Source: an uncultured Actinomycetes bacterium
Lineage (GTDB): Bacteria > Actinomycetota > Actinomycetes > Streptosporangiales > Streptosporangiaceae
Assembly (NCBI GenBank): GCA_963739135.1
Contig: CAVTZG010000026.1
Location: 192,105-256,104 of the forward strand
Length of the DNA: 64,000 bases
Reading direction: 5' to 3'
Under the pieces are notes generated by a model that saw only the letters and a program-made list of their open reading frames with translations, did no database searches and was not told the origin of the DNA. Positions within the stretch are counted from its first letter, which is position 1. Each line of letters opens with the position of its first letter. The position numbers and the translations under genes are program-made. Shown here piece by piece: positions 920 through 63,981 of this stretch.

Positions 920-2389
920 ATGGTTGGCGAGGTGAGATCCGTGCTCACCCCATCCAGGTCGCCGGCCCGAGGCGGCAAAGCGCCAGGTAACCGGCTGCTT
1001 CTGGCTGGGCTGGCCGCGTTCGCCGTGGCTCTCGGGGGCTGGGTGATCTACGCCGTCATCCATCCCCAGAGCTTCACCATAGACCCGGTGGACCTGGCCG
1101 TGTACCGGTCCGGCGGCCTCATCGTCCGGCATGTCAGCCCGCTGTACAACCCGCACCTGGCCTCGCCGCTGTACGACTGGGTCGGGTACCGGGCCGGGCA
1201 CAGCAGCCTGTACCTTCCGTTCACTTACACGCCGTTCGCGGCCGTTGCGTTCGCGCTCATCTCGTATGTGCCGTGGTGGCTGTCCCAGCAGCTTTCTGTG
1301 GCCGTGGACATCATCGCGCTGCTGGCCGCGCTGTGGTTGACGCTCGGCGGCCTCGGCTACCGCCGGGACCAGGTCCGGGTCGGCGCCACGCTGCTGGGCA
1401 CCGCGGCGGTCTTGTGGACCGAGCCGGTCCTGCGCACCATGTACCTGGGCCAGGTCAACCTGGTCCTGATGGCGCTGATCCTGTGGGACCTGACCCAGCC
1501 GGACACGGACAAAACCCGCTGGTGGAAGGGCTTCGGCACCGGCGTCGCGGCCGGCATCAAGCTGACGCCGCTCATCTTCATCCCGTACCTGCTGATGGCC
1601 AGGAAGTTCCGCCAGGCGGGCATGGCCTGCGCGGGATTCGCCTTCACGATGCTGCTCGGCTTCGTCATCCTGCCCGCCGACTCCACCAAGTGGTGGTTCG
1701 ACGGGCTGTTCACACGCAGCGACCGGACCGGCTTCGTCGGCTGGGCAGGCAACCAGTCGCTCGAGGGCATCATCACCAGGCTGACCGGCAGCGTGCACGG
1801 CGCCCAACCCGCCTGGCTCGCGGCGGCAGTGGTGTTCGGCCTGGCCGGCGTGGTGGCCGCCGGGCTGCTCGACCGCAAGGGATACGGCATGCTGGCGCTG
1901 CTGACCGCCGCGCTGACCGCGCTGCTGGTCTCGCCGGTCAGCTGGGACCATCACTGGGTGTGGATCGCGCCCGGCGTGGTCGTGGCTGTTCACTATGCAG
2001 TCCAGTTCTGGCGCCGCGCCGCAAGGCGCGCCGCAGCCGCCTGCATGGCGCTGGCCCTGGCCGTCGTGGCCTGGTTCGGCGCCTGGCCGACCAGCTTGTT
2101 CGGCGTCAAGCCGAACCTCGGCGACGACTCGCTCGGCCTGATCTGGATCCCCAAGAACACCGACCCGATCTACTACGACAAGTACGGCGACAAGCCCTGG
2201 CTGGTCGAGTACCACTGGCATGGCCTGCAGTTCATCGCCGGCAATGCCTACATCCTGGCCGGGCTGGCCATGTTCGGGCTGCTGTTCGCGCTCGCGCTGC
2301 TGCTGCCCGCGGCCAGGAAGGAGCACGACGATGAGCCTGGGCGAGATCGAGCAGGTCGCCGAGGGTATCTACGCCTACCTGCAGCCTGA
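920..2389 (+). CDS. GT87/DUF2029-family polyprenol-phosphate-mannose-dependent alpha-(1,2)-mannosyltransferase-like membrane protein
   Basis: ORF 737..2389 trimmed to MVGEVRSV. Multi-TM protein with DPVDLAVYRSGG, LYLPFTYTPFAAV and GIKLTPLIFIPYLL, as in actinobacterial PimE-like GT87 enzymes. Confidence 0.7.
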   Translation: MVGEVRSVLTPSRSPARGGKAPGNRLLLAGLAAFAVALGGWVIYAVIHPQSFTIDPVDLAVYRSGGLIVRHVSPLYNPHLASPLYDWVGYRAGHSSLYLPFTYTPFAAVAFALISYVPWWLSQQLSVAVDIIALLAALWLTLGGLGYRRDQVRVGATLLGTAAVLWTEPVLRTMYLGQVNLVLMALILWDLTQPDTDKTRWWKGFGTGVAAGIKLTPLIFIPYLLMARKFRQAGMACAGFAFTMLLGFVILPADSTKWWFDGLFTRSDRTGFVGWAGNQSLEGIITRLTGSVHGAQPAWLAAAVVFGLAGVVAAGLLDRKGYGMLALLTAALTALLVSPVSWDHHWVWIAPGVVVAVHYAVQFWRRAARRAAAACMALALAVVAWFGAWPTSLFGVKPNLGDDSLGLIWIPKNTDPIYYDKYGDKPWLVEYHWHGLQFIAGNAYILAGLAMFGLLFALALLLPAARKEHDDEPGRDRAGRRGYLRLPAA

Positions 2390-4624: not shown

Positions 4625-5815
4625 GTGCCTCGTACCGCACGTGACGTCGTCTTCGTGGACGGTGTCCGCACTCCGTTCGGGAAGGCCGGGCCGAACGGCC
4701 TGTACGCCGAGACCAGGGCGGACGACATGGTGGTCAGCGTGATCCGCGAACTGCTGCGGCGCAACCCGTCCCTTCCGCCCGAGCGGATCGGCGAGGTCGC
4801 GATCGCCGCCACCACGCAGACCGGCGATCAGGGACTGACCATCGGGCGCAGCGCCGCGGTGCTGGCCGGGCTGCCCAAGTCGGTGCCCGGGTACGCCATT
4901 GACCGGATGTGCGCGGGGGCCATGACCGCGGTGACCACCGCCGCCGGATCTATCGCGCTGGGCGCGACCGACACGGCGGTCGCGGGCGGCGTGGAGCACA
5001 TGGGCCACCATCCGATGGGTTCCGGGGTCGACCCGAACCCGCGGTTCATCTCTGAGCACCTGGTCGACCCATCGGCGCTGGTCATGGGCTCGACAGCGGA
5101 GAACCTGCACGACCGGTACCCCGGCATCACCCGGGCCCGCGCCGACGCGTACGCGCTGGCCAGCCAGCGCAAGGTCGCCGCGGCCTACGCGGCGGGCAAG
5201 ATCCAGCCCGACCTGGTGCCCGTCGCGGTCTGCAGCGCCGAGCGAGGCTGGGGCCTGGCCACGGTCGACGAGCCGCCCCGCCCGGACACCACGATCGAGG
5301 CGCTGGCCGCGCTGAAGACCCCGTTCCGGCCGCACGGGCGGGTCACCGCCGGGAATTCCGCCGGGCTGAACGACGGCGCCACCGGTTGCGTCATCGCGGC
5401 CCGGGACGTGGCGGCCGAACTGGGCCTGCCGGCCGGGATGCGGCTGGTCGACTTCGGCTTCGTCGGGGTCGACCCGGAGGTGATGGGCATCGGCCCGGTC
5501 CCCGCCACCGAAGCCGTGCTGGCCCGCAATGACCTGACCATCGACGACATCGCGCTGATCGAGATCAACGAGGCGTTCGCGGTGCAGGTCCTGGCCTTCC
5601 TCGAGCACTTCAAGATCGCCGACGACGACCCGCGGGTAAACCGGTGGGGCGGCGCCATCGCGCTCGGCCACCCGCTGGCCAGCTCGGGCGTCCGGCTGAT
5701 GATCCAGCTCGCCCGGCAGTTCGCCGAGCAGCCGAGCGTCCGCTACGGCCTGACCACGATGTGCGTCGGGATGGGGATGGGCGGCACCGTCCTGTGGGAG
5801 AACCTCAATGCCTGA
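4625..5815 (+). CDS. fadA: acetyl-CoA C-acyltransferase (thiolase)
   Basis: DVVFVDGVRTPFGKAG, IDRMCAGAMTAV (active-site Cys), NEAFAVQVL and CVGMGMGGT. GGGAGG lies 6 nt before GTG 4625. The upstream part of ORF 4139..5815 is Arg/Pro-rich non-coding read-through. Confidence 0.9.
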   Translation: MPRTARDVVFVDGVRTPFGKAGPNGLYAETRADDMVVSVIRELLRRNPSLPPERIGEVAIAATTQTGDQGLTIGRSAAVLAGLPKSVPGYAIDRMCAGAMTAVTTAAGSIALGATDTAVAGGVEHMGHHPMGSGVDPNPRFISEHLVDPSALVMGSTAENLHDRYPGITRARADAYALASQRKVAAAYAAGKIQPDLVPVAVCSAERGWGLATVDEPPRPDTTIEALAALKTPFRPHGRVTAGNSAGLNDGATGCVIAARDVAAELGLPAGMRLVDFGFVGVDPEVMGIGPVPATEAVLARNDLTIDDIALIEINEAFAVQVLAFLEHFKIADDDPRVNRWGGAIALGHPLASSGVRLMIQLARQFAEQPSVRYGLTTMCVGMGMGGTVLWENLNA

Positions 5816-8120
5816 CATCTTCAGCCCGAACGGAACGGGGCTCGACAACTCGGTCATCACATCGCTGTTCCCCAACGAGGTCGTCACCAAGGCCCTGGTC
5901 AGGCACGTGGAGTTGCCCTACGGGGCGGGGACCATGGCCCTGATCACCCTGGACAACGGGCATGACCACACCCGGCCGAACACGTTCGGCCCGGCCGGCC
6001 TGATCGCGCTGCGCAGCGCGCTCGAAGAGATAGCCGGCCGGGCCACGCCGGAGGCCGGGGAGCAGAGAATCGCCGCGGTGGGCGTGACCGGCAAGCCGTT
6101 CATCTTCGCGACCGGCGCCGACCTGGCGGTCGCCGCGAAGATCCGCGCGCGGGACGAGGCCCTGGCCGTCGGCCGGCTGGGGCATGATGTGTTCCGCCGG
6201 CTCGGCGAGCTGGGCGTGCCGTCGTTCGCGTTCGTGAACGGCGCGGCGCTCGGCGGCGGCCTCGAGCTCGCACTGCACTGCACTTACCGGACGATCTCAT
6301 CCGGGGTGACCGCGGTCGCGTTCCCCGAGACCTTCCTCGGCCTGCTGCCCGGCTGGGGCGGCACCTACCTGCTGCCGCGCCTGATCGGCCCGGCCAAGGC
6401 GCTCAAGCTCATCATCGAGAACCCGCTCAGCCAGAACCGCTTGCTGGCCGGCCCTGAGGCGTTCTCGCTCGGGATCGCTGACGCCATGTTCGAGCCCGCC
6501 GACTTCCTGGCCGAGTCGCTGCGTTGGGCGGCCCGGGTGCTGGGCAGTATCACCTCGGGGGGAACGATCCCCCCCAGACCCCCCCTGCTGCTTTTCCCGG
6601 GGGGACCCATCCCCCCGGACCCCCCTTGGGAGGGAAGCCTTTCCCCCCAAACCCCCTCGGCCTCCCCGTACCCCCCCGGGGACTGGGACGCCGCAGCGGC
6701 CGGAGCGCGGTCCTTCGCCGACGGCAAGCTGCACGGGGCCGCTCCGGCCCCGTACCGGGCCATCAACCTGGTCACGGCGGCCCGCGACCGGACTCGCGAC
6801 CAGGGGTTCACCGCCGAGGATGAGGCGCTCGCGGACCTGCTGCTCAGCGACGAGCTGCACGCCGGGCTCTACGCCTTCGACCTGACCCAGAAGCGGGCCC
6901 GGCACGCGGCCGGCGCCCCCGACAGGTCGCTGGCCCGGCCGGTCACCAAGGTCGGCGTGGTCGGCGCGGGCCTGATGGCCGCGCAGATCGCACTGCTGTT
7001 CGCGCGGCGGCTCGAGGTGCCCGTGGTGCTGACCGACCTCGACCAGGCCCGGCTGGACGCCGGGGTCGGCCACGTGCACGCCGAGATCGCCAAGCTGGCC
7101 GAGCGGCACCGGATCAGCCCGGATACCGCCGCCAGGCTGACGGGCCTGGTGACCGGCTCGCTGACCAAGGACGCGTTCGCCGACGCGGACTTCGTGATCG
7201 AGGCGGTATTCGAGGAGATCCCGGTCAAGCAGCGGGTGTTCGCCGAGGTCGAGGCGGTGGTCCGGCCGGACTGCGTGCTCGCCACCAACACCTCGTCGCT
7301 TTCGGTGACCGAGATGGCGGCCGGGCTGGCCCACCCTTCCCGCCTGGTCGGCTTCCACTTCTTCAACCCGGTGGCCATGATGCCGCTGATCGAAATAATC
7401 CGGACCGATGCCACCGACGCGCTGTCGACTGACGAGGGGGCGCTTGCCACCGCGTTCGCGGTCGGCAAGGCGCTGAAGAAGAACTGCGTGCTGGTCAAGG
7501 ACTCGCCTGCGTTCGTGGTTAACCGCCTGCTGACCCGGTTCCTGGGTGAGGTCATCGCCTCCGTCGACGAGGGCACCCCGTTCGAGGTCGCCGAGCACGC
7601 ACCCGACCCGCTGGGCCTGCCCGTCTCCCCGTTCCTGCTGCTCCAGCTGGTCGGGCCCGCCGTCGCCCTGCACGTGGCGGAGACCCTGCACCGCGCCTTC
7701 CCCGACCGCTTCGGCGTGTCGCCCAAGCTGCGCGCCCTGGTCGAGGCGGGCAAGACCGGAGTCTACGGACCCGACTTCTCGGTCGACCCGGAGGCGGCGG
7801 CCATCCTGGCCCGGGGGGACGACCCGGCTGGCCCCCCGGGGGACTCCATCCCCCCGGACCCCCCTGGCAGACCCCCCCGCGGGGCCATGGCCGGCGGCGA
7901 CCGCCCGCTGACCGCGGACCAGGTGCGGGAACGGGCCCTGGAGGCGCTGGCCGAGGAGATCAGGCTGATGCTCGACGAGGGCGTGGTAGCCGGCCCCGAA
8001 GACATTGACCTGTGCCTGATCCTCGGCGCCGGCTGGCCGTTTCACCTGGGCGGGATCACACCGTACCTGGATCGCAGCGGGATCACGGAGAAGGTGACAG
8101 GCACCCGGTTCCGCATCTGA
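5808..8120 (+). CDS. fadB: fatty-acid oxidation multifunctional enzyme: enoyl-CoA hydratase / 3-hydroxyacyl-CoA dehydrogenase
   Basis: Crotonase part FVNGAALGGGLELALHC, NAD-binding VGVVGAGLMAAQIA and HFFNPV. Overlaps the fadA stop by 8 nt. Carries two Pro/Gly-rich in-frame insertions (see repeats). Confidence 0.9.
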   Translation: MPDIFSPNGTGLDNSVITSLFPNEVVTKALVRHVELPYGAGTMALITLDNGHDHTRPNTFGPAGLIALRSALEEIAGRATPEAGEQRIAAVGVTGKPFIFATGADLAVAAKIRARDEALAVGRLGHDVFRRLGELGVPSFAFVNGAALGGGLELALHCTYRTISSGVTAVAFPETFLGLLPGWGGTYLLPRLIGPAKALKLIIENPLSQNRLLAGPEAFSLGIADAMFEPADFLAESLRWAARVLGSITSGGTIPPRPPLLLFPGGPIPPDPPWEGSLSPQTPSASPYPPGDWDAAAAGARSFADGKLHGAAPAPYRAINLVTAARDRTRDQGFTAEDEALADLLLSDELHAGLYAFDLTQKRARHAAGAPDRSLARPVTKVGVVGAGLMAAQIALLFARRLEVPVVLTDLDQARLDAGVGHVHAEIAKLAERHRISPDTAARLTGLVTGSLTKDAFADADFVIEAVFEEIPVKQRVFAEVEAVVRPDCVLATNTSSLSVTEMAAGLAHPSRLVGFHFFNPVAMMPLIEIIRTDATDALSTDEGALATAFAVGKALKKNCVLVKDSPAFVVNRLLTRFLGEVIASVDEGTPFEVAEHAPDPLGLPVSPFLLLQLVGPAVALHVAETLHRAFPDRFGVSPKLRALVEAGKTGVYGPDFSVDPEAAAILARGDDPAGPPGDSIPPDPPGRPPRGAMAGGDRPLTADQVRERALEALAEEIRLMLDEGVVAGPEDIDLCLILGAGWPFHLGGITPYLDRSGITEKVTGTRFRI
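6553..6685 (+). repeat. G-run/C-run dispersed repeat, copy 1 (in frame inside fadB)
   Basis: ctcggggggaacgatcccccccagaccccccctgc...cccggggggacccatccccccggaccccccttgggagggaagcctttccccccaaaccccctcggcc. Matches the copies at 7806, 33134 (rc), 59440 (rc) and 63872. Confidence 0.8.
7806..7882 (+). repeat. G-run/C-run dispersed repeat, copy 2 (in frame inside fadB)
   Basis: ccggggggacgaccc...ccccccgggggactccatccccccggacccccctggcagaccccccc. Shares the ggggac-Y-ccatccccccggaccccc core with copy 1. Confidence 0.7.
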
Positions 8121-10080: not shown

Positions 10081-11994
10081 CGCGGTGGATTCCGGTTCTG
10101 CGGTTGATTTCGGGTGCTGGGTAAGCGTTCCAAAATAAAGTAAGTTTCCGGTGTGTCGTGGGCTCTATTGTGCTATTTGCGGAGGCGTCCGCGCGGCGGG
10201 GGGCCGGGGATGGTGATCCCGGCGGTGGCGGCGTGGCGTCGCAGGTCTTGTGGGGTGCGGACGCGGACGGGGCCGGGTGCGAGGGCGGGATGGCTGGTGC
10301 CGAGCAGGCTGGTGATGGCCTGGCAGGCTTCGGCGATGGTGGTGTGGTGCGCGCCGAGCAGGGCGGCGATGTGGGTGCTGGGCATGCCGAGCCGGTGGTG
10401 GCAGATGGCGGCCAGCAGCTGGGTTTCCAGGGTGTACTTGAAGGGGGCGGCCGGGCCGGTGCGGGCGCGGCGGGAGTGGCCGCGGTCCAGGTGGAGCCGC
10501 TGCTCGCGGGCGGCGGCCCAGGGCAGTTCGAGGCTGGCGGCCAGCGCGGCGAGGTCTGCACGGAGCAGGCCGGTCAGCTGCGGGCTGGCCAGGGCGGCCA
10601 CGACGGGAGCCAGAGCGGCCAGAGCGGCGGTGGCCGCCGGGAGCATGGCGGGCTCTGGCCGGGGTTCCGGGGCGGGCCGCAGGACGGGCAGGAGGGTGCA
10701 GTTCCACTCGCCGTGGAAGCGGTGGCGGGTTAAGGCCCTGGCCTCCAGGTCGTGCATCTGCTCGTCGCTGACCTGGGTTCCGGTGGGGTAGCGGTTCTGG
10801 TCCAGGACGGCGGTGACGGTCAGCCCGGTGGCGGTCCTGGTCGCGGCGATGGTGTTGATGATGACGTCGTGGCTGGTCAGCGGGCGGCCGCGCCAGTTCA
10901 GGGTGATCTGGGAGAACAGCCGGTGCTCAATCTTGTTCCACTTGGAGGTGCCGGGCGGGAAATGGCAGACGGTGATCTCCAGCCCGCTGTCCTGCGCGAA
11001 CTGGGCCAGCCCGGCCTTCCAGGCCCGGTTGCGCCAGCCGTTGGCCCCGCCGGCGTCGCAGCACACCAGCAGCCGGCCCGCACCCGGGTAGACGTCCCGG
11101 CCGGCCAGGTCCCACCAGCGGCGGATGGACTCCACCGCCAGCGCAGCGGTGTTGTGGTCGGTGCCCACGTTGACGAACCCGGTGCTGGCGGCCACGTCGT
11201 AGACCCCGTACGGGATCGCGTGCCCGCCGTCCTGGTCCGCGAAGCTGTGGTCACGGACCTTCACCGGGTCCCCCGCCGGCCGCCATTCCCGCCCGGCCTG
11301 CGCATACTCCCCGGCTTCCTCTTTCTTCTTCGCGTCCACGCTGATCACCGGCTGCCCGGCGGCCAGGCGCTCCTTAGCCTGCGCGGCGATATACCGGAAC
11401 TGGGCGTCCCGGTCCGGGTGCCGCCGGCCCTCGGTCACCTTCGCGTTGGCCTGGGTGGAGAACCCCTGCTCGTGCAGCAGCCGCCAGGCCGTCTGCGGGC
11501 TGCACCGGTGCCCCTGACGCGTCAGCTCGGCCGGCAAGTTCTTCGCGCTCTTCGTCGTCCACAGCAGCGGCGACTCCGGGTCCCCCCGGGCCGAGTCCGC
11601 CACCAGGGCCAGCAGCGCGGGCACCAGCCCGGGATCGGTCCCGGCGAGCTTCTTGCGGCCCGCACCCGGCCGCCGGACCCGGCCTTCCGGCACGACCTGG
11701 CCAGAGCCCAGCTCTGCCGCGCCGTTCGCGACCGTCTGCCAGGACGCCCCGGTCATCTTGGCCACCGCCGTGACCCCGCCGTCCCCGGCCGCCCGCGCCA
11801 CCGCCCCCAGCGTCAGCCGCCGCGCCTTCTCATCCAGCTCCGGCAGCAGCAGCCCCAGCTCCGGCCCGATAAGCTTCAAAAACTCCGCGTTCGCGCCCAT
11901 ACGCCATCCTGGCACGCGACACGCCGGAAACTCAGGTTATTCCGGAATGTCTGCGGAATCCCGCCAATCAACCGCAAAGCATGAATCAACCGCG
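10081..11994 (-). mobile_element. ISAzo13-like insertion sequence (~1.9 kb) with ~80-bp imperfect terminal inverted repeats
   Basis: Left end 10081..10160 is cgcggtggattccggttctgcggttgatt...aagtttccggtgtgtcgtg. The reverse complement of 11913..11994 is cgcggttgattcatgctttgcggttgatt...gagtttccggcgtgtcgcgtg. A single transposase ORF fills the interior. Confidence 0.8.
10173..11915 (-). CDS. ISAzo13-family DDE transposase with C-terminal extension
   Basis: WTTKSAKNLPAELTRQGHRCSPQTAWRLLHEQGFSTQANAKV, ISVDAKKKE and HFPPGTSKWNKIEHRLFS are typical of the ISAzo13/DDE_Tnp_ISAZ013 family. The last ~150 aa (PFKYTLETQLLAAICHHRLGMPSTHIAALLG) resemble the HTH N-terminus of DDE_Tnp_4-type transposases. Confidence 0.85.
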   Translation of the reverse strand: MPGWRMGANAEFLKLIGPELGLLLPELDEKARRLTLGAVARAAGDGGVTAVAKMTGASWQTVANGAAELGSGQVVPEGRVRRPGAGRKKLAGTDPGLVPALLALVADSARGDPESPLLWTTKSAKNLPAELTRQGHRCSPQTAWRLLHEQGFSTQANAKVTEGRRHPDRDAQFRYIAAQAKERLAAGQPVISVDAKKKEEAGEYAQAGREWRPAGDPVKVRDHSFADQDGGHAIPYGVYDVAASTGFVNVGTDHNTAALAVESIRRWWDLAGRDVYPGAGRLLVCCDAGGANGWRNRAWKAGLAQFAQDSGLEITVCHFPPGTSKWNKIEHRLFSQITLNWRGRPLTSHDVIINTIAATRTATGLTVTAVLDQNRYPTGTQVSDEQMHDLEARALTRHRFHGEWNCTLLPVLRPAPEPRPEPAMLPAATAALAALAPVVAALASPQLTGLLRADLAALAASLELPWAAAREQRLHLDRGHSRRARTGPAAPFKYTLETQLLAAICHHRLGMPSTHIAALLGAHHTTIAEACQAITSLLGTSHPALAPGPVRVRTPQDLRRHAATAGITIPGPPPRGRLRK

Positions 11995-13079
11995 CAAATG
12001 TGACCGCTGAGGCCAGTGATCCGGCTCGCGCCGCGCAGCTCATGATCGCGAGCACTTGTACCCGGCGATCGGGCCGAGATCATCAGGATGGGGGGCTGGG
12101 CCGAGGGCGTAGTGGCTGGGCCGGGAGTAACGACTGAGGTCCCAGGACCTAGCCGGCCGGCAATCACTCCCAAGGAGCCGCACCCAGGACCCCTCGGTCC
12201 GGTTGTAACCGGCGCAGGTGTCCATCGTCCCGGCTGGCCAGCCCGGGCCCGGGTGGCGCCGCCCGCATAATCGACTGGCCAAGGCCAGGTGAGCAGGTCT
12301 GCGGGTGCTGATCGGGGCTGCTCGGCAGGCGGGAGCCTGACATGGACGGTGATGCAGTCCTGGGAATGCCCGACCGGCGTCACCGGCCAGTGGGCCGAGA
12401 TCATGGCCAGCACCTTCCGGTTGCCCGCTAGCACGTCCATGGCCAGCGTGGTCACGCCGCGGCCCTGGACGGCGGTGATCAGCGCGCGCATCAGGGCCGC
12501 GCCCACGCCCCGGCCCTGCCAGGCGTCGGCGACCACTATGCCGACGTCCGGCGCCGGCGTGGCCCCGCAACCGTGGGCCGTTTCTGGGCCGCACGGATCC
12601 GAGGGAGGGGCGGCGTCCGCCGCCATGGCGTGCCCGATGATGACGCCGTCCCGGACCGCCACCACGGCATCGACATCGCCGGGCTCGCCGCACAACAGCC
12701 GGAGCAGGGCGGAGTTCGGCGTGACCGGCGCGAAGAATCTGAGGTAACGGGTCCGCGCCGATAGCCTGGCAAAGAAGTCGCCAAGCGTGGGGAAGTCAGC
12801 CGCTTCAGCCCGCCGGACCGTGAATGCGGCGCTGGCATGCTCATCCGCGAAGCCGATGCTGGCTTGCTCGCTCGTGACGCCGGCGCTGGCTTGCTCGCTC
12901 GTGAAGCCCGCGCTGGCTTGCTCGCTCGTGAGGCCGGCGCTGGCTTGCTCGCTCGTGAAGCCCGCGCTGGCTTGCTCGCTCGTGAGGCCGGCGCTGGCTT
13001 GCTCGCTCGTGAAGCCCGCGCTGACCAGTTCCGTCACGGAGCGGGTACCACTGGCCGGCTCCATCTGGGTTCGATCCAT
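11937..13079 (-). CDS. GNAT-family N-acetyltransferase with N-terminal 9-aa tandem repeats; 3' end runs into the IS
   Basis: GNAT core VGIVVADAWQGRGVGAALMRALI. N-terminal (SAGFTSEQA)n. Start taken at MDRTQ (13079; alternatives 13127 and 13064). The part of ORF 11937..13547 above 13134 is antisense to hxlR. The low-complexity C-terminal tail ends 57 nt inside the IS right inverted repeat. Confidence 0.65.
   Translation of the reverse strand: MDRTQMEPASGTRSVTELVSAGFTSEQASAGLTSEQASAGFTSEQASAGLTSEQASAGFTSEQASAGVTSEQASIGFADEHASAAFTVRRAEAADFPTLGDFFARLSARTRYLRFFAPVTPNSALLRLLCGEPGDVDAVVAVRDGVIIGHAMAADAAPPSDPCGPETAHGCGATPAPDVGIVVADAWQGRGVGAALMRALITAVQGRGVTTLAMDVLAGNRKVLAMISAHWPVTPVGHSQDCITVHVRLPPAEQPRSAPADLLTWPWPVDYAGGATRARAGQPGRWTPAPVTTGPRGPGCGSLGVIAGRLGPGTSVVTPGPATTPSAQPPILMISARSPGTSARDHELRGASRITGLSGHICAVDSCFAVDWRDSADIPE
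12831..13023 (-). repeat. 27-bp tandem repeat, ~7 units, coding (SAG[FLV]TSEQA)n
   Basis: gctggcttgctcgctcgtgaRgccSgc is repeated head to tail. The units alternate between two variants. Confidence 0.9.
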
Positions 13080-13133
13080 GAACTCAGCATCCGCCGGATT
13101 GCTGAGTCTGTCAATCAGACTTAGCATGCGTTC

Positions 13134-13610
13134 ATGGAACGGCCCTGGATTCTGGACTTTGACTCGGCCAACTGCGCGATCGGCGCGGCAGTGGGGATCA
13201 TCGGCGAGCGGCAGACCTTCCTGGTGCTGCGCGAAGCCTTCAACGGCGTGCGCCGGTTCGATGACATGCAGCGCCGCACCGGAATGCCCCGGCAGGTGCT
13301 CAGCCAGCGCCTGGCCCGCCTGGTGGAGGAGGGTCTGCTCCGCAGGGTGCCCTACCAGGACAGCGGTCAGCGCAGCCGGGATGAGTACCGGCTCACCGGC
13401 AAGGGTCTCGACCTGTATCCGGTGCTGGTGGCGCTCATGGACTGGGGCGACAAGCATGCGGTAGGTCCGGCCGGCTCGCAGGTCGAGCTGCGGCACCGTG
13501 ACTGCGGAGAGCCGGTGCGGCTGCAGCTGTCCTGCCAGGCCGGCCACGTCCTGGAATCGGCGCGTGAGGTCACGCCGGTGCCGGGGCCCGGAGCCCGCAA
13601 GATCGCCTAG
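13134..13610 (+). CDS. HxlR-family winged-helix transcriptional regulator
   Basis: CAIGAAVGIIGERQTFLVLREAFNGVRRFDDMQRRTGMPRQVLSQRLARLVEEGLL. Divergent from the GNAT gene. Confidence 0.8.
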   Translation: MERPWILDFDSANCAIGAAVGIIGERQTFLVLREAFNGVRRFDDMQRRTGMPRQVLSQRLARLVEEGLLRRVPYQDSGQRSRDEYRLTGKGLDLYPVLVALMDWGDKHAVGPAGSQVELRHRDCGEPVRLQLSCQAGHVLESAREVTPVPGPGARKIA

Positions 13611-32295: not shown

Positions 32296-33122
32296 TCATG
32301 ACTGGTGAACATGACGGCATCGCCGACTATCAGTTCATCCGGAAGCTCGGCGCCGGGGGCCACGGGGTGTTCTACCTCGCCCGCCGGCCGGAACGGCTGC
32401 CCATCACCGCCAACTACGTCGCGGTCAAGGTGCTCTCCGGCGGCAGCAGCCAGGATCTGTTCAGGTGGGCGCACCGCGAGCTCGCTGCGTTCGCCGCGGT
32501 CAGCTCGCCCTACCTGGTCAGCCTGTACGACGCGGGCCAGCAGGGCGAGGAGGTGTACTACTCGATGGAGTACCTGCCCGGCGGCTCGCTGGCCGAGCCG
32601 GCCGAGCCGCTCAGCCGGGCCGCCGCCTTGAAGGCCATGGCCGACGTCTCCCGCGCCGCGCACGCCCTGCACGAGGCCGGCATCGCCCACCGTGACATCA
32701 AGCCGGGCAACGTCCTGCTGCAGCCCGGCGGGGCCAAGCTGGCCGACCTCGGCCTCAGCCACGTGCTCTCACCCGGGATCACCGTCACCGGCATGGGCCC
32801 CGCGGGCGATATCGGCTACCTCGACCCGTGCCTGATGCGCGGCGATCGCCCGTCCCGGGCCAGCGACGTGTTCTCGCTGGGCGCTACCTTGCACTTCGCC
32901 CTGGTAGGCGAGGGCCTGTGGGGGCAGCTCCCGCAGGATGATCCGGTCATGGCCATGCGCACGGTCGTGTCCCATCCGCCCGCCATCTCTGCCCAGGTGG
33001 ACCCGGCGGCCCGGGATATCATCGCCTGGGCCATCGCCGCCGACCCGGCCGAACGGCCCGGCACCGCCCTGGAGCTCGCCGAGCGAATCGAGGAGCTCGC
33101 TATGGCCTCCGCCCCCGATTAG
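32292..33122 (+). CDS. stand-alone Ser/Thr protein kinase catalytic domain (276 aa)
   Basis: GAGGHGVFY, VAVKVL, HRDIKPGNVLL and ADLG. The ATG overlaps the antiporter stop (ATGA). Confidence 0.85.
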   Translation: MIMTGEHDGIADYQFIRKLGAGGHGVFYLARRPERLPITANYVAVKVLSGGSSQDLFRWAHRELAAFAAVSSPYLVSLYDAGQQGEEVYYSMEYLPGGSLAEPAEPLSRAAALKAMADVSRAAHALHEAGIAHRDIKPGNVLLQPGGAKLADLGLSHVLSPGITVTGMGPAGDIGYLDPCLMRGDRPSRASDVFSLGATLHFALVGEGLWGQLPQDDPVMAMRTVVSHPPAISAQVDPAARDIIAWAIAADPAERPGTALELAERIEELAMASAPD

Positions 33123-33133
33123 CGCATATAAAG

Positions 33134-33172
33134 TTGGGGGGTCCGGGGGGGACGACCCCCCGGGAAAAGAAT
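33134..33172 (-). repeat. G-run/C-run dispersed repeat, partial copy (intergenic)
   Basis: ggggggtccgggggggacgaccccccgggaaaaga. Its reverse complement matches cttttcccggggggac...ccccccggacccccc of copy 1. Confidence 0.65.
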
Positions 33173-33213
33173 GCCTGGCCGGTAGCGGCAGCCGGCCAGG
33201 GACGGAGACGTGG

Positions 33214-34521
33214 ATGACATCGGCGACGAGGAGCGAGCCTGACGGGCCGCGCTTTGGGCCTTACATCCTGACGGCCGTCATCGGCCGCGGCGGGATGGGC
33301 GTCGTCTACCGCGCCTACAACACCGTCAAGGCGCGCACCGTCGCCCTCAAGGTGCTGACCCCCGAACTGGCCGCGGATCCGGTGTACCGGGAACGCTTCC
33401 GCCGCGAGTCCCGGCGCGCGGCCCGGCTCAGCGAGCCGCACATCATCCCCATCCACGACTACGGGCAGATTGACGGCCGCCTGTTCATCGACATGCGCCT
33501 GGTGCAGGGCACCGACCTGTCCACCATGCTGGAGCGCGACGGGCCGCTGCCGCCGAACGGGGCGGCCTGGGTCATTGCCCAGGTCGCCTCGGCACTGGAC
33601 GCCGCGCATGCCGACGGGCTGGTGCACCGGGACGTCAAGCCGTCCAACGTGCTGATCACCGGGCATATCCAGAGCATGCCGTTCGCCTATCTGATCGACT
33701 TCGGCATCGCCCGCGCGGTCGGCAGCGTCACCGTCTCCACCGCCACCAGCGCCGTCGGCACCCTGGCCTACATGGCGCCGGAACGGATCAACGGGGCGCC
33801 CGGCGACCACCGGTCGGACGTGTACTCGCTGGCCTGCGTGCTGTACGAGTGCCTGACCGGGCACGAGCCGTTCACCGGGGAGATGGTGGCCGTCATGTGG
33901 GCCCAGATCAACTCCCCGCCGCCCGCGCCCACCGCGGTCAGGCCCGGCCTGCCCGCCACGGTCGACCAGGTCATCGCGCGCGGCATGGCCAAGGACCCGG
34001 CCAGCCGGTATAGCACCGCGGGCGAGCTGGCCGCCGCCATGCTGGCCGCGGTCGATCCCAGCGTACGGCAGGCCCGGGAGCCGGAACCCGGCCCGCCGAC
34101 CGCGGTCACCTACGTCCCGGCCAAGGGGGACCGGCCCGCACCGCACCAGACGGGCGCCGACGTCCCGCTGTGGGAAGGTGACCCGGCCGGCCGGACCCAG
34201 GCCGCGCTGCGCGCCATCGTGGCCAACCCCCAGCTGGGGGTGGCCGCCCTGTCCAGCTCGCAGGCCATGTCCGCCGCGCTGAAGGACCTGCTTCCCGGTC
34301 GGCCCCGGGAGACGAAGGTGCTGGTGGCCGCGGCCGAGGTGGGGCTGACCGCGGCCCTGAAGTATCACACGGCGCGCGGCATGGACGTGACTACCGCCCG
34401 CCGGCGGGCGGCGCGGTCCTTCGCCAAGCACACCGGGTTCGCGCCGGAAGCATGCAGCTGGGCGGTCGACCACCTGACCGCGGCGCTCGGCCTGGACGCC
34501 GGCTCCGAGGTAGCCCGGTAG
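33214..34521 (+). CDS. Ser/Thr protein kinase with ~150-aa C-terminal domain of unknown function
   Basis: [31 protein letters not shown] and GTLAYMAPE. No TM helix was seen. Confidence 0.9.
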
Positions 34522-34584
34522 AACCGGGGCGTCGGGTCCCACAATCTGGTCCCGCTCGGGTAAGATCTCAATTGCTGATGACAC

Positions 34585-34745
34585 CGGCCGGGAGAGATCC
34601 CGCATTGCTGCGGGCGCCGAAGGGGCAACATCCCCGGAACCTCTCAGGCACACGAACCAGCCGGAACAGGCATCTCTGGAGCGGGCCCAGCAGGCCAAAG
34701 GGGCCGCGACAGACGGGGAGCCAGCGACCGCGCTCGTCCGGGAGG
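34585..34745 (+). ncRNA. glycine riboswitch (one canonical aptamer plus a degenerate second element) in the gcvP leader
   Basis: ccGGGAGAGatcccgcattgctgcgggCGCCGAAGGGGCAAcatccccggaaccTCTCAGGCAcacgaac matches the glycine aptamer core. It is followed by CTCTGGAGCgggcccagcaggCCAAAGGGGCcgcgac, which lacks the CTCAGG element. It lies directly upstream of gcvP. Confidence 0.75.
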
Positions 34746-34751
34746 CTCTCT

Positions 34752-47880: not shown

Positions 47881-48509
47881 GAGTTACCCGCAGACGCCAG
47901 CTCGATGTCGCTGACCTGCCAGCTGCTGCCCGACCCGGTCAGGGTGACCGCGTACTGAGCGCTGCCGTTGCTGGCGCCGTGGGAGCTGACCAGGTGCTGC
48001 GTGGTGTTGACCACGAACGTCAGACTGGACGGGCCGAAGGCCCGCAGCGAATTGATCGCCGCGGTCCCAGTGGAGACCTGCTGCTGGCTGGTCCGCGTGC
48101 TGACCACTCCCGGCGTGGAGTAGCTGGCCTGCAGGGTCGTGCCCAGCTCCCCGGTGATCAGCCCGGTCATCTTTGCCACGTAGGCGGCCGCGCTCTCGGT
48201 GTAGCTGTAGGTGTTGTAGTCGACGCCGAACCGCACCGCCACCGAGGCGGCGGTGGCTAGGTCCTGCTGGGTGAAGGGCAGCCAGGCGTAGATGTTCACG
48301 CCGCCCGTCGCGGCCGCCGATGCCGTCTCGGTCGGGCCTGGAGCGGGGGTGGTCGCGGCCGCCGGGCCGGCCGGCGTGGGCGAGATGCCCGCCTGGGCAT
48401 GCCCGCCGGAGTGGGTCAGGGCGGGGACTACGAGGTAGTAGCCGAGCGCGGCGAGCGCGATGACGATGACGGCGAAAACTGCGCTGCGCTGGCGGGGGCT
48501 GAGCTCCAC
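47877..48509 (-). CDS. membrane-anchored protein, possible VirB8-like component
   Basis: Single N-terminal TM helix (SAVFAVIVIALAALGYYLVV), a Pro/Ala/Thr linker and a ~140-aa globular domain. Translationally coupled to the downstream hydrolase gene (ATGA). The VirB8 analogy rests only on architecture and position. Confidence 0.5.
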   Translation of the reverse strand: MELSPRQRSAVFAVIVIALAALGYYLVVPALTHSGGHAQAGISPTPAGPAAATTPAPGPTETASAAATGGVNIYAWLPFTQQDLATAASVAVRFGVDYNTYSYTESAAAYVAKMTGLITGELGTTLQASYSTPGVVSTRTSQQQVSTGTAAINSLRAFGPSSLTFVVNTTQHLVSSHGASNGSAQYAVTLTGSGSSWQVSDIELASAGNS

Positions 48510-48521
48510 GGTGCCTGCCGG

Positions 48522-51092: not shown

Positions 51093-51116
51093 CGGGCAAA
51101 CTCCTGGCTGGTGCGG

Positions 51117-59372: not shown

Positions 59373-61830
59373 TCAGATTCGGCCGTCAGAACCGGCGACC
59401 CCCGCCCCCGTCATCTTAAGTAATAACTTGATCGGAGTAAAGGAATTGTCCCCCTCGTCGAGGGGCCCGGGGGGTACAGGGGGTACGGGGGGGCGGGCAG
59501 CCCCCTCGTGCGCAGGGGGGCTCTGGGGGGGATCGCTCCCCCCGAGGAAATAGAGCCGGGACGGCCACCAGTTCCACCGGCCGATCAGCACCACGGCCGA
59601 CGGCACCAGCAGCGTCCTGACCAGGAAGGTGTCCATCAGCACGCCGAGCGCGAGGCCGACGCCGACATCCACGATCGTCCGGACGTTCTGCGCCCCCGCG
59701 CTTCCGGACCCCACGATGGCCAGCACGCCGAACGTCCCGGCCAGCACCAGGCCCGCCGAGGTGACCGTGGTGCCGGTGACGCGCAGCGCCCGGCTGACCG
59801 CCTCGGGCAGCGGTAGCCGGTGCGCCTCTTCCCTGATCCTGGTCATGACCAGGATGTTGTAGTCCTCGCCCAGCGCCAGCAGGAACATGAACAGCAGGAA
59901 CGGCAGGATGAAGGTCAGTCCCGGCTGGCCGGCGGCCTTGACGAACACCAGCACGGTCAGGCCCAGGGCCGAGAAGTACGACAGCACCACGGAGACGATC
60001 AGGTACAGCGGCGCGATCAGGCTGCGCATCACCAGCGCGAGCAGGACCGCGATCACGGCGATGGCGATCGGGATGACCGTGCGCAGGTCGCTGTCGGACA
60101 GCTGGGCGACGTCGTAGGTGAACGGCGCCTGGCCGGTCACGCCGAAGGCCGACGCCCCGGCCGCCCGCGCCGCCCGGGCCGCGTCGGCCCGGATCGCGGG
60201 CACCGCCTCCTCGGCGAGGGTGCCGGCCGGGTTGCCCGCGGCCAGCGCGGTCGCGAACGAGAACCGTGTCCCCGTCGGCGCTCACGTACGACCCGCTGGC
60301 CCGGTAGGACTGGTAGGCGGCCAGCGTGACCCGCGGGACCTGCCCGCCCGGTGCGGCGGTCAGCGCGCGCGGCGGCCCGTAGGCGGCGTGCAGCGCGGTG
60401 TACTGCGCCGCGGTCAACGCGGTCCCGTTGGCGTTGAAGGGCCCGGACACCGCGGCGAACTGCGGGTCGGCGGCCAGCTGCCGCTCGGCCGCGGCCACCG
60501 CGGCCGCGGCCGCCCAGACCGGCTGGCGCAGCCGGAACACGATGATGGTGGGGTTGGCCGCCGACTGCGGGAAGTGCTCGGCCAGCAGCGCGTTGCCCAG
60601 CGCAGAGTCGCTGCCGGGCGGCGCGGTGGCCGCCCCGCCGAACCCGGCGGCCAGGTAGCCGGCTGAGGCCACCGCCAGCGCGGCGAACACGACCAGGCCC
60701 GCCACCAGCGTGGCGGCCGGCCGGTGCACGATCCGGGCACAGGCCGGTCCCCACCAGCCGGCCCGGCCGCCCCCCGGCTTGACCGAGGACGGCCAGAACG
60801 CGACCGGCCCGAAGATGGCCAGCAGCGCGGGCAGCAGGGTCAGCCCGGCGATTAGCATCAGCCCGATCGCGATGGCCAGCGGGGCGGCCAGGCCGGAATA
60901 CAGGCTGAAGGAGGCGGTGGCCAGCGACAGCAGCGCGGCGATGAGGATGCCGGCCGAGAACGTGATCGTCTCGCCGACCCGCGCGACCCCCAGCACGATC
61001 GCCTCATGGCAGCTCAGCCCGGCGCGCATCTCCTCCCGCACCCGGAACATCAGGAACAGCGCGTAGTCGGTACCCGCGCCGAGCACCAGGACGATCAGCA
61101 GCAGCGAGGCGATCTGCGACACCGACAGGCCGCCGACGGCGGCCTCGGCGGTCAGCCGCTCGGCCACCAGCACGACCACGATGGCGGGCAGCACCGCGAT
61201 CAGCGGCGCCAGCGCCGACCGGAACACCGCGACCAGCAGCGCGATCACGAACAGGATCGAGAACCACTGGACCTGCCCGCCGGTCTTGCCCGAGGTCGCG
61301 TTGTTGTCCACCCGGGTCGCCACCGGCCCGGCGGTATGGGCCGCCAGCCCGGCCGGCAACACGGTGGCCTGGATGACGTCGCGCAGCCCGGCCACCAGGC
61401 TGGCCTGCTGCGAGGTGGCCAGCCCGCCGGACCGGGCCAGCGCGGCCAGCACGGTGAGCTGCTCGGCCCGGCCGTCGGCAGACTCCCCGGCGTCCCGCGC
61501 CGCGGTCACCCGCGCCACCCGGCCGAGCGCGGCGGCCAGCCGGGCGATGGCCGCCAGGTCGGTGCCGGTCAGCGGCCCGCCGGGCCGGGCGACGACCACG
61601 CCGACCGCGGTCAGCGAGGCGCTCTGCAGCGGCGAGGCCAGCTGGGCGGCCTGCTCGCTAGGCGCGCTGGCCGGCAGGAACGAGGTGTTGTCGCTCTGCG
61701 TCACGCTGGACAGCGACGGGAGCAGCACCATGGCCGCGATCGTGCCCGCCACCCAGGCCAGCAGGATGGCCCAGCGGAAGCGGACGGCCAGCCGGCCGGC
61801 CGCCGCAAAGGAGGTACCCACAGAAGCCAT
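59373..61830 (-). pseudogene. MMPL-family RND transporter, interrupted by a 1-nt frameshift (or sequencing error)
   Basis: N-terminal two-thirds is in the frame of ORF 59416..63996 (MASVGTSFAAAGRLAVRFRWAILLAW...GAGTDYALFL...). C-terminal third is in ORF 59373..60203 (LGEDYNILVMTRIREE...). The frames switch within 60264..60281. Confidence 0.8.
59440..59548 (-). repeat. G-run/C-run dispersed repeat, reverse-orientation copy (3' end of MMPL gene)
   Basis: The reverse complement ctcgggggggagcgatcccccccagagcccccctgc...ccccccgtaccccctgtaccccccggg matches the start and end of copy 1. Confidence 0.75.
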
Positions 61831-61926: not shown

Positions 61927-63981
61927 GTGGCAGATCCGCACGGCTACCGGCCGGCGCCGGGCGAGATTCCGGAGTCCCCGGGGGTCTACCGGTTCCGTGA
62001 CCAGCGGGGCCGGGTGATCTACGTCGGCAAGGCGAAATCCCTCCGCCAGCGCCTGAACTCCTACTTCGCCGACTTCGCCAGCCTGCACCCGCGCACCCAG
62101 ATGATGCTGCAGACGGCGGCGGGCGTGGAGTGGACCGTGGTCAGCACCGAGGTGGAGGCGCTCCAGCTCGAGTACTCCTGGATCAAGGAGTTCGACCCCC
62201 GGTTCAACGTCAAGTACCGGGATGATAAGAGCTATCCCTACCTGGCCGTCACCATGGGCGAGGAATACCCGCGGGTCATGGTGATGCGCGGCGCCAAGCG
62301 GAAGGGCACCAAGTACTTCGGCCCCTACAGCCACGCCTGGGCCATCCGCGACACGGTGGACACCCTGCTGCGGGTGTTCCCGGTACGCACCTGCTCGGCG
62401 GGCGTGTTCAAGCGGTCGGGCCAGATCGGCCGGCCTTGCCTGCTCGGCTACATCGGCAAGTGCTCCGCGCCCTGCGTCAAGCGGATCAGCGCGGCGGGGC
62501 ACCGCGCCCTGGCCGAGGACTTCTGCGACTTCATGGCCGGGCAGACCAGCCGGTTCGCCAGCCGGCTGGAGGCCGATATGAAGGAAGCGGCGCGGCTGGA
62601 GGAATTCGAGCGGGCGGCGAGGCTCCGCGACGACCTGCGGGCCCTGGAGCGGGCCATCGAGAAGCAGGCCGTGGTGCTCGGCGACGGCACGGACTGCGAC
62701 GTCATCGCGCTGGCCGAAGACCAGCTCGAGGCAGCGGTGCAGGTCTTCTACGTGCGCGGCGGCCGGGTCCGCGGGCAGCGCGGCTGGGTGCTGGACAAGG
62801 TCGAGGACGTGACCCCCGCCGGGCTGGTGGAGCACTTCCTGGGCCAGGTCTACGGCGACACGCCGGACGACGCCGAGGCGGTCAACGCCGGCATCCCCCG
62901 TGAGGTCCTGGTGCCCGAGCTGCCGCCCGACCCGGCCAGCATGGCGCAGTGGCTGGCCGAACGCCGCGGCGGCCCGGTCAGCCTGCGGGTGCCGCAGCGC
63001 GGCGACAAGAAGGCGCTGCTCGAGACTGTGGCCCGCAATGCGGGCGCGGCGCTCGCCCTGCACAAGACCCGCCGGGCCAGCGACCTGACCACCCGGAGCA
63101 AGGCGCTGAGCGAGATCCAGGAGGGGCTCGGCCTGGACGACGCGCCGCTGCGGATCGAGTGCTACGACGTGTCGAACCTGCAGGGCACGCACGTGGTGGC
63201 GTCGATGGTCGTGTTCGAGGACGGACTGGCCCGCAAGAGCGAGTACCGCCGGTTCGCGATCAAGGGCACCGATGGCACCGACGATATCTCGGCCATCCAC
63301 GAGGTCATCAGCCGCCGGTTCCGCCGCTACCTGGCCGAGCGGGAGAAAACCGGGGAACTGGACACCCTCGGCGACCCAGAAGGCGCCGAAGATCAAGATC
63401 AAGAACCTGACTCCGAACGGGCCGTGGTGACAGCCCAGAGGAAATTCGCCTACCCGCCCAACCTGGTGGTCGTGGACGGCGGACCCGGCCAGGCCGCCGC
63501 GGCGGCCCGGGCCCTGGCTGAGCTGGGCATCGACGACGTGGCCGTCTGCGGCCTGGCCAAGCGCCTGGAGGAGGTATGGCTGCCGGGCGAGGAGTACCCG
63601 GTCATCCTGCCCCGCAGCAGCGAGGGACTGTACCTGCTGCAGCGGGTCAGGGACGAGGCCCACCGGTTCGCGATCACCTATCACCGGCAGAAGCGCAGCA
63701 AGGCCGCCACCGCCAGCGTGCTCGACGATGTGCCGGGACTCGGCCCGGCCCGGCGCGCGGCCCTGCTCAAGCACTTCGGCTCGGTGCGTAAGCTCTGCGC
63801 AGCGAGCGCAGAAGAGATCGCCGCCGTACCGGGCATCGGCCCCCGGCTGGCCGTCACGATCGCCACAGTATTGGCCGGGGGGACGACCCCCCAAGACCCC
63901 CCCGCTCCTGGGGGGAAACCTTTCCCCCCAGACCCCCTCGGCCCCAGACCCCCCTTGGGAGAACGTCATGAGGACGGCTGA
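61927..63981 (+). CDS. uvrC: excinuclease ABC subunit C
   Basis: [31 protein letters not shown], the UvrB-interacting region and C-terminal (HhH)2 [18 protein letters not shown]...VPGIGPRLA. The last ~30 codons come from a repeat copy. Confidence 0.95.
63872..63962 (+). repeat. G-run/C-run dispersed repeat, copy at uvrC 3' end
   Basis: ccggggggacgaccccccaagacccccccgctcctggggggaaacctttccccccagaccccctcggccccagaccccccttgggag. Collinear with parts of copy 1. Confidence 0.8.

Follow-up and report, generated by a model that had tools for sequence, protein, structure and literature searches.

Two segments inside fadB, a gene for an enoyl-CoA hydratase / 3-hydroxyacyl-CoA dehydrogenase in the 64-kb window analysed here (contig CAVTZG010000026.1, from an uncultured actinomycete of the Streptosporangiaceae), are probably copies of a dispersed, modular repeat that forms hairpins: a small non-coding selfish element of the type known from repetitive extragenic palindromic (REP) sequences, Rickettsia palindromic elements (RPEs) and mycobacterial interspersed repetitive units (MIRUs). 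The repeat is likely to be abundant in a clade of soil actinomycetes resembling Streptosporangiales. The evidence comes from fadB orthologues and environmental alleles in which the same loops are empty, from related copies elsewhere in the window and in other genomes, and from a conserved anatomy that is independent of the reading frame.

Two loops of FadB are empty in most orthologues

The product of fadB carries the Pfam domains ECH (ECH_1), 3HCDH_N and 3HCDH, has trifunctional protein (TFP) alpha and FadB as relatives in the PDB, and is encoded just downstream of the thiolase gene fadA. Its closest proteins come from forest, peat and tropical soil metagenomes, and the NCBI metagenome-assembled genomes (MAGs) among the matches are labelled Streptosporangiaceae. 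We aligned it with 120 FadB orthologues of 76-99% identity. The first-pass annotation had proposed that both segments are lineage-specific, and the alignment bears this out. At site 1, between the hydratase and dehydrogenase halves, 93 of the 120 orthologues have a short native loop, the stretch from LRWA to ARFFAD being 25 residues long in them versus 58 in the window protein. Site 2 is empty in 95 of 120 (AAIL-AGGDRP, the hyphen marking the site), and the window protein has 27 additional residues there, in a loop that is of variable length in the human enzyme too. The remaining orthologues have inserts of differing length at these same two loops, and another clade has a separate insertion four codons downstream of site 2. 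The same DNA is read in different frames among orthologues, giving GGPIPPDPP in the window and GGTHPPGPP or GDPSPQTP elsewhere, so that all three frames are in use.

The inserted peptides and residue positions given earlier were correct, and so was the approximate location of the segments; the bounds shift from 6553..6685 to 6543-6677 and from 7806..7882 to 7812-7892. The first element is placed at 6543-6677 because the similarity to the copy at 59512-59557 begins 14 nt ahead of the first G-run. The inserts look foreign to their gene by G+C content at third codon positions (0.83 versus 0.94 in the rest of fadB), by rare codons, AGA, CTT and CAA among them, and by a content of 49% Pro plus Gly. 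Both appear as coil only in an AlphaFold model of FadB built with 52 close orthologues; with a mean predicted local distance difference test score (pLDDT) of 44, this model was too poor for a fold search and was set aside for that use.

Contigs from four soil metagenomes provide alleles of both sites. Some join 7806 to 7888 and thereby give the exact empty site 2, with 81 nt skipped and 5 nt that fit both sides; another skips 42 nt of the same insert, from 7825 to 7868. At site 1, stretches of 42 and 71 nt are absent from contigs. In the empty site 2, gcc atc ctg gcc is directly followed by ggc ggc gac; the filled site has TGGCC on both sides as a direct repeat of 5 nt (7807-7811 and 7888-7892). 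The insert consists of a 42-nt short form (CGGGGGGACGACCCCCCCAGACCCCCCCGCGAGGCCATGGCC) and a nested 39-nt module. In other lineages, site 2 holds the 42-nt short form, a tandem double (protein P0014) or an 18-nt remnant (locus L148), and a syntenic relative of 88% identity, locus L201, has the same site-1 element minus the 42-nt module B. The earlier description of two in-frame insertions holds for site 2, where exactly 81 nt were added, and has to be qualified for site 1: there, in the hydratase-dehydrogenase linker, 45 codons stand in place of about 12 native ones, which makes the protein 33 aa longer, and the element is a nested composite of modules and not one insertion.

Related clusters elsewhere in the window and in other genomes

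The window has a G+C content of 71%. Within it, the pattern GGGGG-N2-12-CCCCC-N2-12-CCCCC has 15 matches in five places, versus 0.36 expected from 100 dinucleotide-preserving shuffles (maximum 4), which confirms the five clusters of alternating runs of 5-7 G or C noticed before. A criterion based on runs only (at least three runs of at least five G or C) returned the same five clusters, at 6557-6677, 7813-7878, 33112-33161, 59450-59543 and 63877-63954, and nothing comparable besides them in the 64 kb. Orientation varies: three copies are on the plus strand and two on the minus strand. The copy at 59512-59557 matches fadB 6543-6588 at 87%. As the first reading had anticipated, the repeat is dispersed; copies are present at other places in the window, in related metagenome loci and in genomes of named Streptosporangiaceae and Actinomadura. 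In the four soil metagenomes, reads cover the repeat 10-100 times as deeply as the flanking fadB and branch into many different flanks.

The positions of the copies and of their modules are collected in Table 1. The intergenic copy lies between two Ser/Thr kinase genes, 13 nt past the stop codon of the first. Two further copies, at 59450 and 63877, are not intergenic but form translated 3' tails. In the MMPL-family gene (59373-60203, minus strand), the tail supplied by the element reads ...RLYFLGGSDPPQSPPAHEGAARPPVPPVPPGPLDEGD... and makes up about the last 57 codons; the Pfam MMPL match stops at residue 216 of 276, where the repeat-derived tail starts. In uvrC (61927-63981), the element begins right after the helix-hairpin-helix (Pfam HHH, which ends at about residue 647 of 684).

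Table 1. Host gene, copies of the repeat and their modules in the window
Feature	Position	Strand	Remarks
fadB (enoyl-CoA hydratase / 3-hydroxyacyl-CoA dehydrogenase)	5808..8120	+	uninterrupted open reading frame, 770 aa
Site-1 composite element	6543..6677	+	135 nt, 45 codons, sense to fadB
Site-1 left arm	6543-6556	+	part of site-1 element
Site-1 module A	6557-6585	+	loop AACGAT
Site-1 arm-like spacer	6586-6598	+	between modules A and B
Site-1 module B	6599-6625	+	loop ACCCAT
Site-1 module C	6628-6656	+	loop AAGCCTTT
Site-1 module D, truncated	6657-6677	+	
Site-2 insert	7812..7892 (equivalently 7807-7887)	+	81 nt, 27 codons, sense to fadB
Single head module + arm	33136..33175	-	ggcattcttttccc-GGGGGG-TCGT-CCCCCCC-GGA-CCCCCC; intergenic
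Module A + module D element	59450..59557	-	3' tail of MMPL-family transporter gene
Module A + C + module B tail element	63865..63961	+	last ~34 codons of uvrC

A polar element built from hairpin modules

The anatomy of the repeat was derived from 73 clusters, taken from the window and from actinomycete loci and brought into the same orientation. Conservation spans from 12 nt before the first G-run to one base past the second C-run. It starts with a 12-nt arm, approximately CTsTGCTkGCCC, which is kept from -12 to +1 in unrelated loci, followed by the head, G6-ACGA-C6-(A/G)GA-C6-G. An A-type head, with the loop ACGA or a close variant, comes first in 59/73 clusters, and the spacer is AGA or GGA in 45/73. 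Optional downstream modules, called B, C and D, share the design G6-loop-C6-NNA-C6 and often follow in 30-45-nt steps or as 42-nt tandem units: module B has the loop ACCCAT and then TTGGGAG, module C the loop AAGCCTTT and then TCGG, and module D the loop CTGCCCG and then GTA-C6. The order A-B-C-D is common to long copies of different genomes. In the window, site 1 has A-B-C plus a truncated D, uvrC has A-C plus the tail of B, the MMPL-family gene has A-D, and the intergenic copy has A. Modules B, C and D are almost never found alone, which indicates an element whose head is fixed and whose far end varies, and long copies are polar, with the head at one end only. Tandem 42-nt units occur in loci L007, L033, L094 and L111 and in the FadB protein P0014; the arrays of L007, L033, L111 and P0014 include the flanking arm, and the 42-nt unit recurs in unrelated genes (L007, L094, L111 and L141).

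The hairpins appear in predicted folds. In 50 of 61 distinct loops, the outer bases pair through compensatory changes, versus 28 ± 3.7 in shuffles; since it is the outer bases of long loops that pair, the hairpin itself is conserved.

In-frame copies as probable survivors

The location of copies was surveyed in 53 clusters from 44 actinomycete loci that were chosen from a genome collection by DNA pattern. Most are non-coding on both sides (23/53) or at the end of a gene (11/53); 13/53 lie in frame inside an open reading frame (ORF), 5 of them sense and 8 antisense, five between co-directional reading frames and one between convergent genes. The genes with internal copies encode NuoG, MetH, MurD, an ArgD-like aminotransferase, a GT4 glycosyltransferase, a histidine kinase, an AsnC-type regulator and a double GNAT protein; LysX and LysZ likewise carry in-frame copies. 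In 6 of 8 scanned hosts, the copy falls between Pfam domains, that is, in an inter-domain linker. Copies inside genes give a Pro/Gly-rich coil by conceptual translation, and those at gene 3' ends supply the tail and the stop codon.

How is the frame kept? Either selection for multiples of three or tolerance in surface loops had been suggested. Module spacing is a multiple of three in 12/22 cases inside genes and in 11/24 outside, and this lack of bias means that the length is not built into the element. Of 80 copies, 55 (69%) are free of stop codons in all six frames, versus 27% of random segments of matched length drawn from these loci. Given the unbiased spacing, the scarcity of stops and the location mainly in linkers, frame preservation looks like survivorship plus tolerance, a property of surviving insertions and not of element length. 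The fadB copies are probably in frame for the same reasons, namely the near-absence of stops and selection against the remaining insertions.

At the protein level, a word-indexed search with the 47-aa site-1 peptide gave no candidate, and an exhaustive HMMER search with it gave 5 matches, mostly spurious ORFs that start in repeats; short low-complexity peptides suit census-taking poorly. Four short hypothetical proteins in public sets (P0121-P0124) have N-termini that equal the translation of the repeat, and to judge by their sequences, they look like gene-calling artefacts seeded by the stop-free element.

Patchy occupancy and uneven density

The distribution of filled sites was examined on a neighbour-joining tree of 121 FadB sequences from which the insert columns had been removed. 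Site 2a is filled in 19/121 sequences and requires a minimum of 16 changes; the corresponding numbers are 7/121 and 5 for site 2b, and 25/121 and 14 for site 1. Filled and empty states are thus scattered over the tree, which means that the same spots were filled repeatedly, that they were precisely emptied repeatedly, or that relatives exchanged sequence. Copy density is uneven as well, with 5 clusters in the 64 kb of the window and none in 22 kb of a 78% relative (L202). Mapping of reads to the MMPL copy gave no clean empty allele.

How copies may arise and be lost

If the fadB segments are copies of a selfish repeat, new copies would arise repeatedly at or close to short sequences that match, for instance TGGCC, as well as alongside copies already present, and they would be lost by deletion between short direct repeats or between G and C runs. 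A net length of 3n, together with landing in a linker or a surface loop, would leave the protein working, and selection would discard the other insertions. As the copying route, we prefer template switching or ectopic gene conversion at stalled forks among hairpin copies; the second choice would be a hairpin-recognising transposase of the HUH type, either a REP-associated tyrosine transposase (RAYT) or one like that of IS200, acting from elsewhere in the genome. What favours copy-choice or gene conversion is the replacement of codons at site 1, together with the variable modules and the tandem arrays that contain the arm; what favours a defined start point is that the arm is conserved and the head fixed. 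The shared TGGCC and the arm-like empty target fit an HUH enzyme, template switching and target duplication equally well.

Several points weigh against the reading of the segments as copies of a mobile repeat. In the window, neither a transposase nor a clear target-site duplication tied to the element was found. The window's one transposase gene, of the ISAzo13 family (10176-11915), was rejected as a possible parent, its ends (CGACACRCCGGAAACT) being unrelated to the repeat. An inverted-repeat search yielded only cross-matches from copy to copy and no terminal inverted repeats. The 5-nt direct repeat is seen at site 2 only, where TGGCC fits a target duplication, a cleavage site and microhomology equally well, and site 1 is no simple insertion, native codons having been replaced. 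Fold stability relative to dinucleotide-preserving shuffles is modest, with z-scores from -0.1 to -1.7; these scores are uninformative because the shuffles retain the G and C runs. The patchy occupancy could also be explained by one old insertion followed by many precise losses, or by recombination between relatives, and the neighbour-joining tree, built from very similar proteins, is weak and too shallow to separate these scenarios. The census covers the 64-kb window and a further 1 Mb or so of fetched loci; those found by pattern scan were selected for containing the motif. Finally, the sequencing runs found for the organism are soil metagenomes only, with at most 19% shared words, and no RNA or isolate run was among them. 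Another candidate was an oppositely oriented pair of copies in locus L043, taken as a possible transposase cassette; it was rejected, as the pair encloses an ordinary lysW-lysX-lysY-lysZ set, two genes of which carry in-frame copies.

It is possible that no dedicated enzyme takes part at all. Modules prone to hairpin or triplex formation would then stall replication, template switching by microhomology or ectopic gene conversion would paste modules into new places, and slippage would delete them. This account, which we hold tentatively, agrees with junctions that lie within short homologies (TGGCC, G and C runs), with module content that differs among orthologous sites through nested gains or losses of 42 nt, with the replacement of native sequence at site 1, with the tandem 42-nt arrays that contain the arm (L007, L033, L111, P0014), and with the failure to find a transposase in the window. 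Moreover, the empty site 2 is already arm-like (gccatcctggcc, compared with the consensus CTsTGCTGGCC). However, microhomology alone would hardly seed new loci with a conserved 12-nt arm, and the polarity of the element (fixed head, variable 3' end) points to a defined start.

A transposase of the HUH/Y1 class (RAYT or similar to IS200/IS605) encoded elsewhere in the genome, which cuts 3' of a pentanucleotide like TGGCC and excises precisely, in the way proposed for REPs, would account for a stem that is kept while the loop varies, for the same pentanucleotide at the left flank and at the right end of the site-2 insert, for the exact empty allele, for the repeated occupation of the same site in scattered lineages and for the lack of terminal inverted repeats. 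We nonetheless regard its involvement as rather unlikely: the 12-nt arm carries neither the GTAG nor the CGTC tag of REP families (PMC3733652), a non-exhaustive Pfam scan of about 35 window ORFs found no Y1 transposase, the window copies are in mixed orientation (three plus, two minus), and peel-and-paste transposition does not predict the replacement of native sequence seen at site 1.

A small structured RNA that is reverse-transcribed and integrated by target-primed synthesis would produce, through early stops, one fixed and one variable end. On the G-rich strand, the 3' part (head and arm) is indeed common to the copies and the 5' extent varies, which is the pattern of truncated retrocopies. 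Yet no reverse transcriptase is encoded by the window ORFs scanned, A-D copies that lack B and C would require internal deletions, and there is no poly-A-like or other 3' tag; such an origin seems improbable.

We consider it highly improbable that the copies are functional RNA signals, be it riboswitch hairpins resembling guanidine-II, terminators or mRNA stabilisers, with the in-gene copies being incidental. The head hairpin does have an ACGR loop on a G/C stem, and many copies directly follow genes. The best agreement with the Guanidine-II model (RF01068) comes from locus L011, where a head (G6-ACGA-C6) with its next module (2299-2350, minus strand) scores 28.5 bits, below the gathering threshold of 32. 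The ACGR loop is confined to the head, copies lie inside ORFs and on both strands, no T run follows the hairpins, and the window has no guanidine-II match. In Rfam searches of the window at gathering thresholds and of eight loci at E <= 0.1, the motif was covered by no family. The elements could, however, trigger false riboswitch calls.

That the inserts are ordinary low-complexity Pro/Gly linkers, grown in place by codon slippage and selected for linker length, is hardly credible: both sites are variable-length loops in the wider family and the inserts are 49% Pro plus Gly, but such an origin is already contradicted by a similarity at the DNA level that is independent of frame and strand, reaches non-coding copies and the 12-nt arm outside the runs, and extends to the same 42-nt unit in unrelated genes (L007, L094, L111, L141).

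Comparison with known repeat families

The closest parallel to a repeat that settles in frame inside conserved genes is provided by the RPEs, reportedly described by Ogata et al. 2000. Like them, the actinomycete repeat is small and non-coding, occurs between and inside genes without a transposase of its own, and adds peptide segments in frame to tolerated regions of conserved proteins; its in-frame copies in conserved genes sit at positions that orthologues leave empty. RPEs, however, are AT-rich palindromes of 100-150 bp from obligate intracellular alpha-proteobacteria, whereas the actinomycete repeat consists of G/C-run hairpin modules of about 27-42 nt, with a polar head and extensions, forms tandem arrays, supplies the 3' tails of genes and lives in free-living soil hosts with 71% G+C. 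Base composition and host make membership in RPE-1 to RPE-8 implausible. One of these families, RPE-1, is mentioned in a work that also treats REP sequences (PMC3733652).

The REP families defined so far are marked by GTAG or CGTC at the base of the hairpin, and some REPs are found within genes, those for DNA repair among them (PMC3733652). With REPs and bacterial interspersed mosaic elements (BIMEs), the actinomycete repeat shares short, G+C-rich hairpins in high copy number, often clustered and just downstream of genes, and the compensatory pairs in 50/61 loops agree with the hairpin-forming imperfect palindrome of 20-40 nt expected of REPs. It differs in its consensus, CTsTGCTkGCCC, which lacks both tags, in the quarter of pattern-selected copies that lie inside ORFs, and in the extra NNA-C6 tract that follows every hairpin. 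A RAYT gene flanked by the repeats, which the REP class would have, was not found among the ~35 window ORFs scanned.

MIRUs, reportedly described by Supply et al., are likewise dispersed repeats of actinobacteria, 40-100 nt long, that occur as tandem units in varying number and are read in frame with adjacent genes; the scattered loci of the present repeat also differ in how many tandem units they have. Yet MIRUs lie between the genes of operons, not in enzyme domains or linkers, and are not built from G/C runs, whereas 13 of the 53 pattern-selected clusters are inside ORFs. The mitochondrial GC clusters of yeast and the double-hairpin elements of Allomyces are short G+C-rich hairpins. They resemble the actinomycete repeat in having short flanking repeats and in being occasionally in frame inside genes, but belong to organelle genomes with an AT-rich background and have unrelated sequences. 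Among miniature inverted-repeat transposable elements (MITEs), copies in Coxiella burnetii alter protein ends (PMC5896051). The actinomycete repeat resembles such MITEs in being non-autonomous and in affecting protein sequences. In contrast to MITEs, the actinomycete copies have no terminal inverted repeats; an inverted pairing is seen only in copies from giant-virus bins (L212, L249).

A search of the open-access literature by topic and by the literal motif found no paper in which the motif appears or in which a repeat of this kind is reported from this bacterial order. An in-frame hairpin repeat is apparently undescribed in this group of actinomycetes.

The same core in other phyla and in viral contigs

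The core G6-loop-C6-NNA-C6 recurs in other phyla and in viral contigs. Among the matches listed, Rhodobacterales account for about 49 of 120 loci, and others belong to Desulfovibrionaceae, Chloroflexota, a cyanobacterium and a Methanofollis MAG; the families of these groups share the core but have flanks of their own. The Rhodobacterales have a unit of about 60 nt, GGCC-GGGGGG-loop-CCCCCC-GGA-CCCCCC-GRGGATATTT-n6-AGAAGAAG, found in loci L005, L006, L009, L012, L016-L018, L050 and L058 and in some 40 others among the matches listed; its flanks are unrelated, its stem shows compensatory changes, and no Rfam match was obtained in the loci tested. A Streptomyces sp. NPDC048415 family (L015, L023, L114) and an Amycolatopsis family (L021, L045, L067) combine the same core with conserved flanks of their own, ...GTATCGCGCTTCGCGCTCGTCCTCAAACGCCGGACGGGCTG and ...ACGGTGCG, respectively.

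In viral contigs, the core occurs 53 times, including phage contigs, contigs of 32-45% G+C and giant-virus bins, and a chance origin in the low-GC viral contigs is negligible. Inverted pairs of the core (G6-loop-C6-TGA-C6), 125-210 nt apart, lie at L212 5799-5972, L249 11673-11909 and L237 367-513, all low-GC contigs from giant-virus bins or phages; going by their arrangement, they look like the ends of miniature transposable elements. When any three non-C bases are allowed as the spacer, it ends in A in 101 of 123 distinct matches. With its tracts in the order purine, pyrimidine, pyrimidine, one strand would be able to form a hairpin and add a third strand to it. That G6-loop-C6-NNA-C6 represents a class of self-propagating DNA module found across domains, a hairpin with a third strand laid onto it, and not a peculiarity of actinomycetes, is an unlikely but intriguing thought. 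If one structure-driven mechanism were at work, be it polymerase stalling with template switching or a widespread hairpin-binding enzyme, it would be a general route by which such elements spread and seed protein linkers.

Other features of the window

The ISAzo13-family gene is on the minus strand and encodes a DDE transposase (Pfam E = 5e-132); its terminal inverted repeats, CGACACRCCGGAAACT, lie near 10140-10158 and 11919-11937, and the matching interval of the closely related, syntenic locus L201 lacks the gene. Genes of conjugation type occupy 46717-55659 on the minus strand (an NlpC/P60 and SLT hydrolase, a TrbL/VirB6-like membrane protein, an AAA_10 ATPase and a TcpE-family protein); the block is probably an integrated conjugative element. 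Two coding tandem repeats bear no relation to the G/C-run family: one of 27-nt period and about 9 copies at 12792-13050, in a GNAT-domain ORF (11937-13547, minus strand), and one of 9-nt period and about 15 copies at 48729-48872, in the TrbL-like ORF. A glycine riboswitch aptamer (34579-34669, plus strand, 61.5 bits) lies upstream of the gene for the glycine cleavage P-protein. Since the called ORF (34452-37592) opens ahead of this aptamer, the real start codon is probably downstream of the aptamer. Between 21322 and 34521, signalling genes are grouped: an FHA and zinc-ribbon protein, a MerR-family regulator, a PP2C phosphatase, a second FHA protein, an Na+/H+ exchanger and two adjacent Ser/Thr kinases.

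Implications

Rickettsia is the best-known case of selfish repeats that colonise conserved genes in frame. The repeat family described here offers a test system in free-living bacteria of high G+C content: it is abundant in soil metagenomes, many pairs of filled and empty alleles exist, the same sites are hit repeatedly, and copies lie in well-studied proteins such as FadB, MurD, NuoG, MetH and UvrC. On the practical side, the repeats will mislead gene callers, and spurious ORFs born from them are already in protein databases; they also inflate apparent variation in protein length and break short-read assemblies. The added polyproline stretches should require elongation factor P, and both the copying of the element and the tolerance, or even use, of Pro/Gly-rich inserts and new C-terminal tails by proteins become testable in this family.

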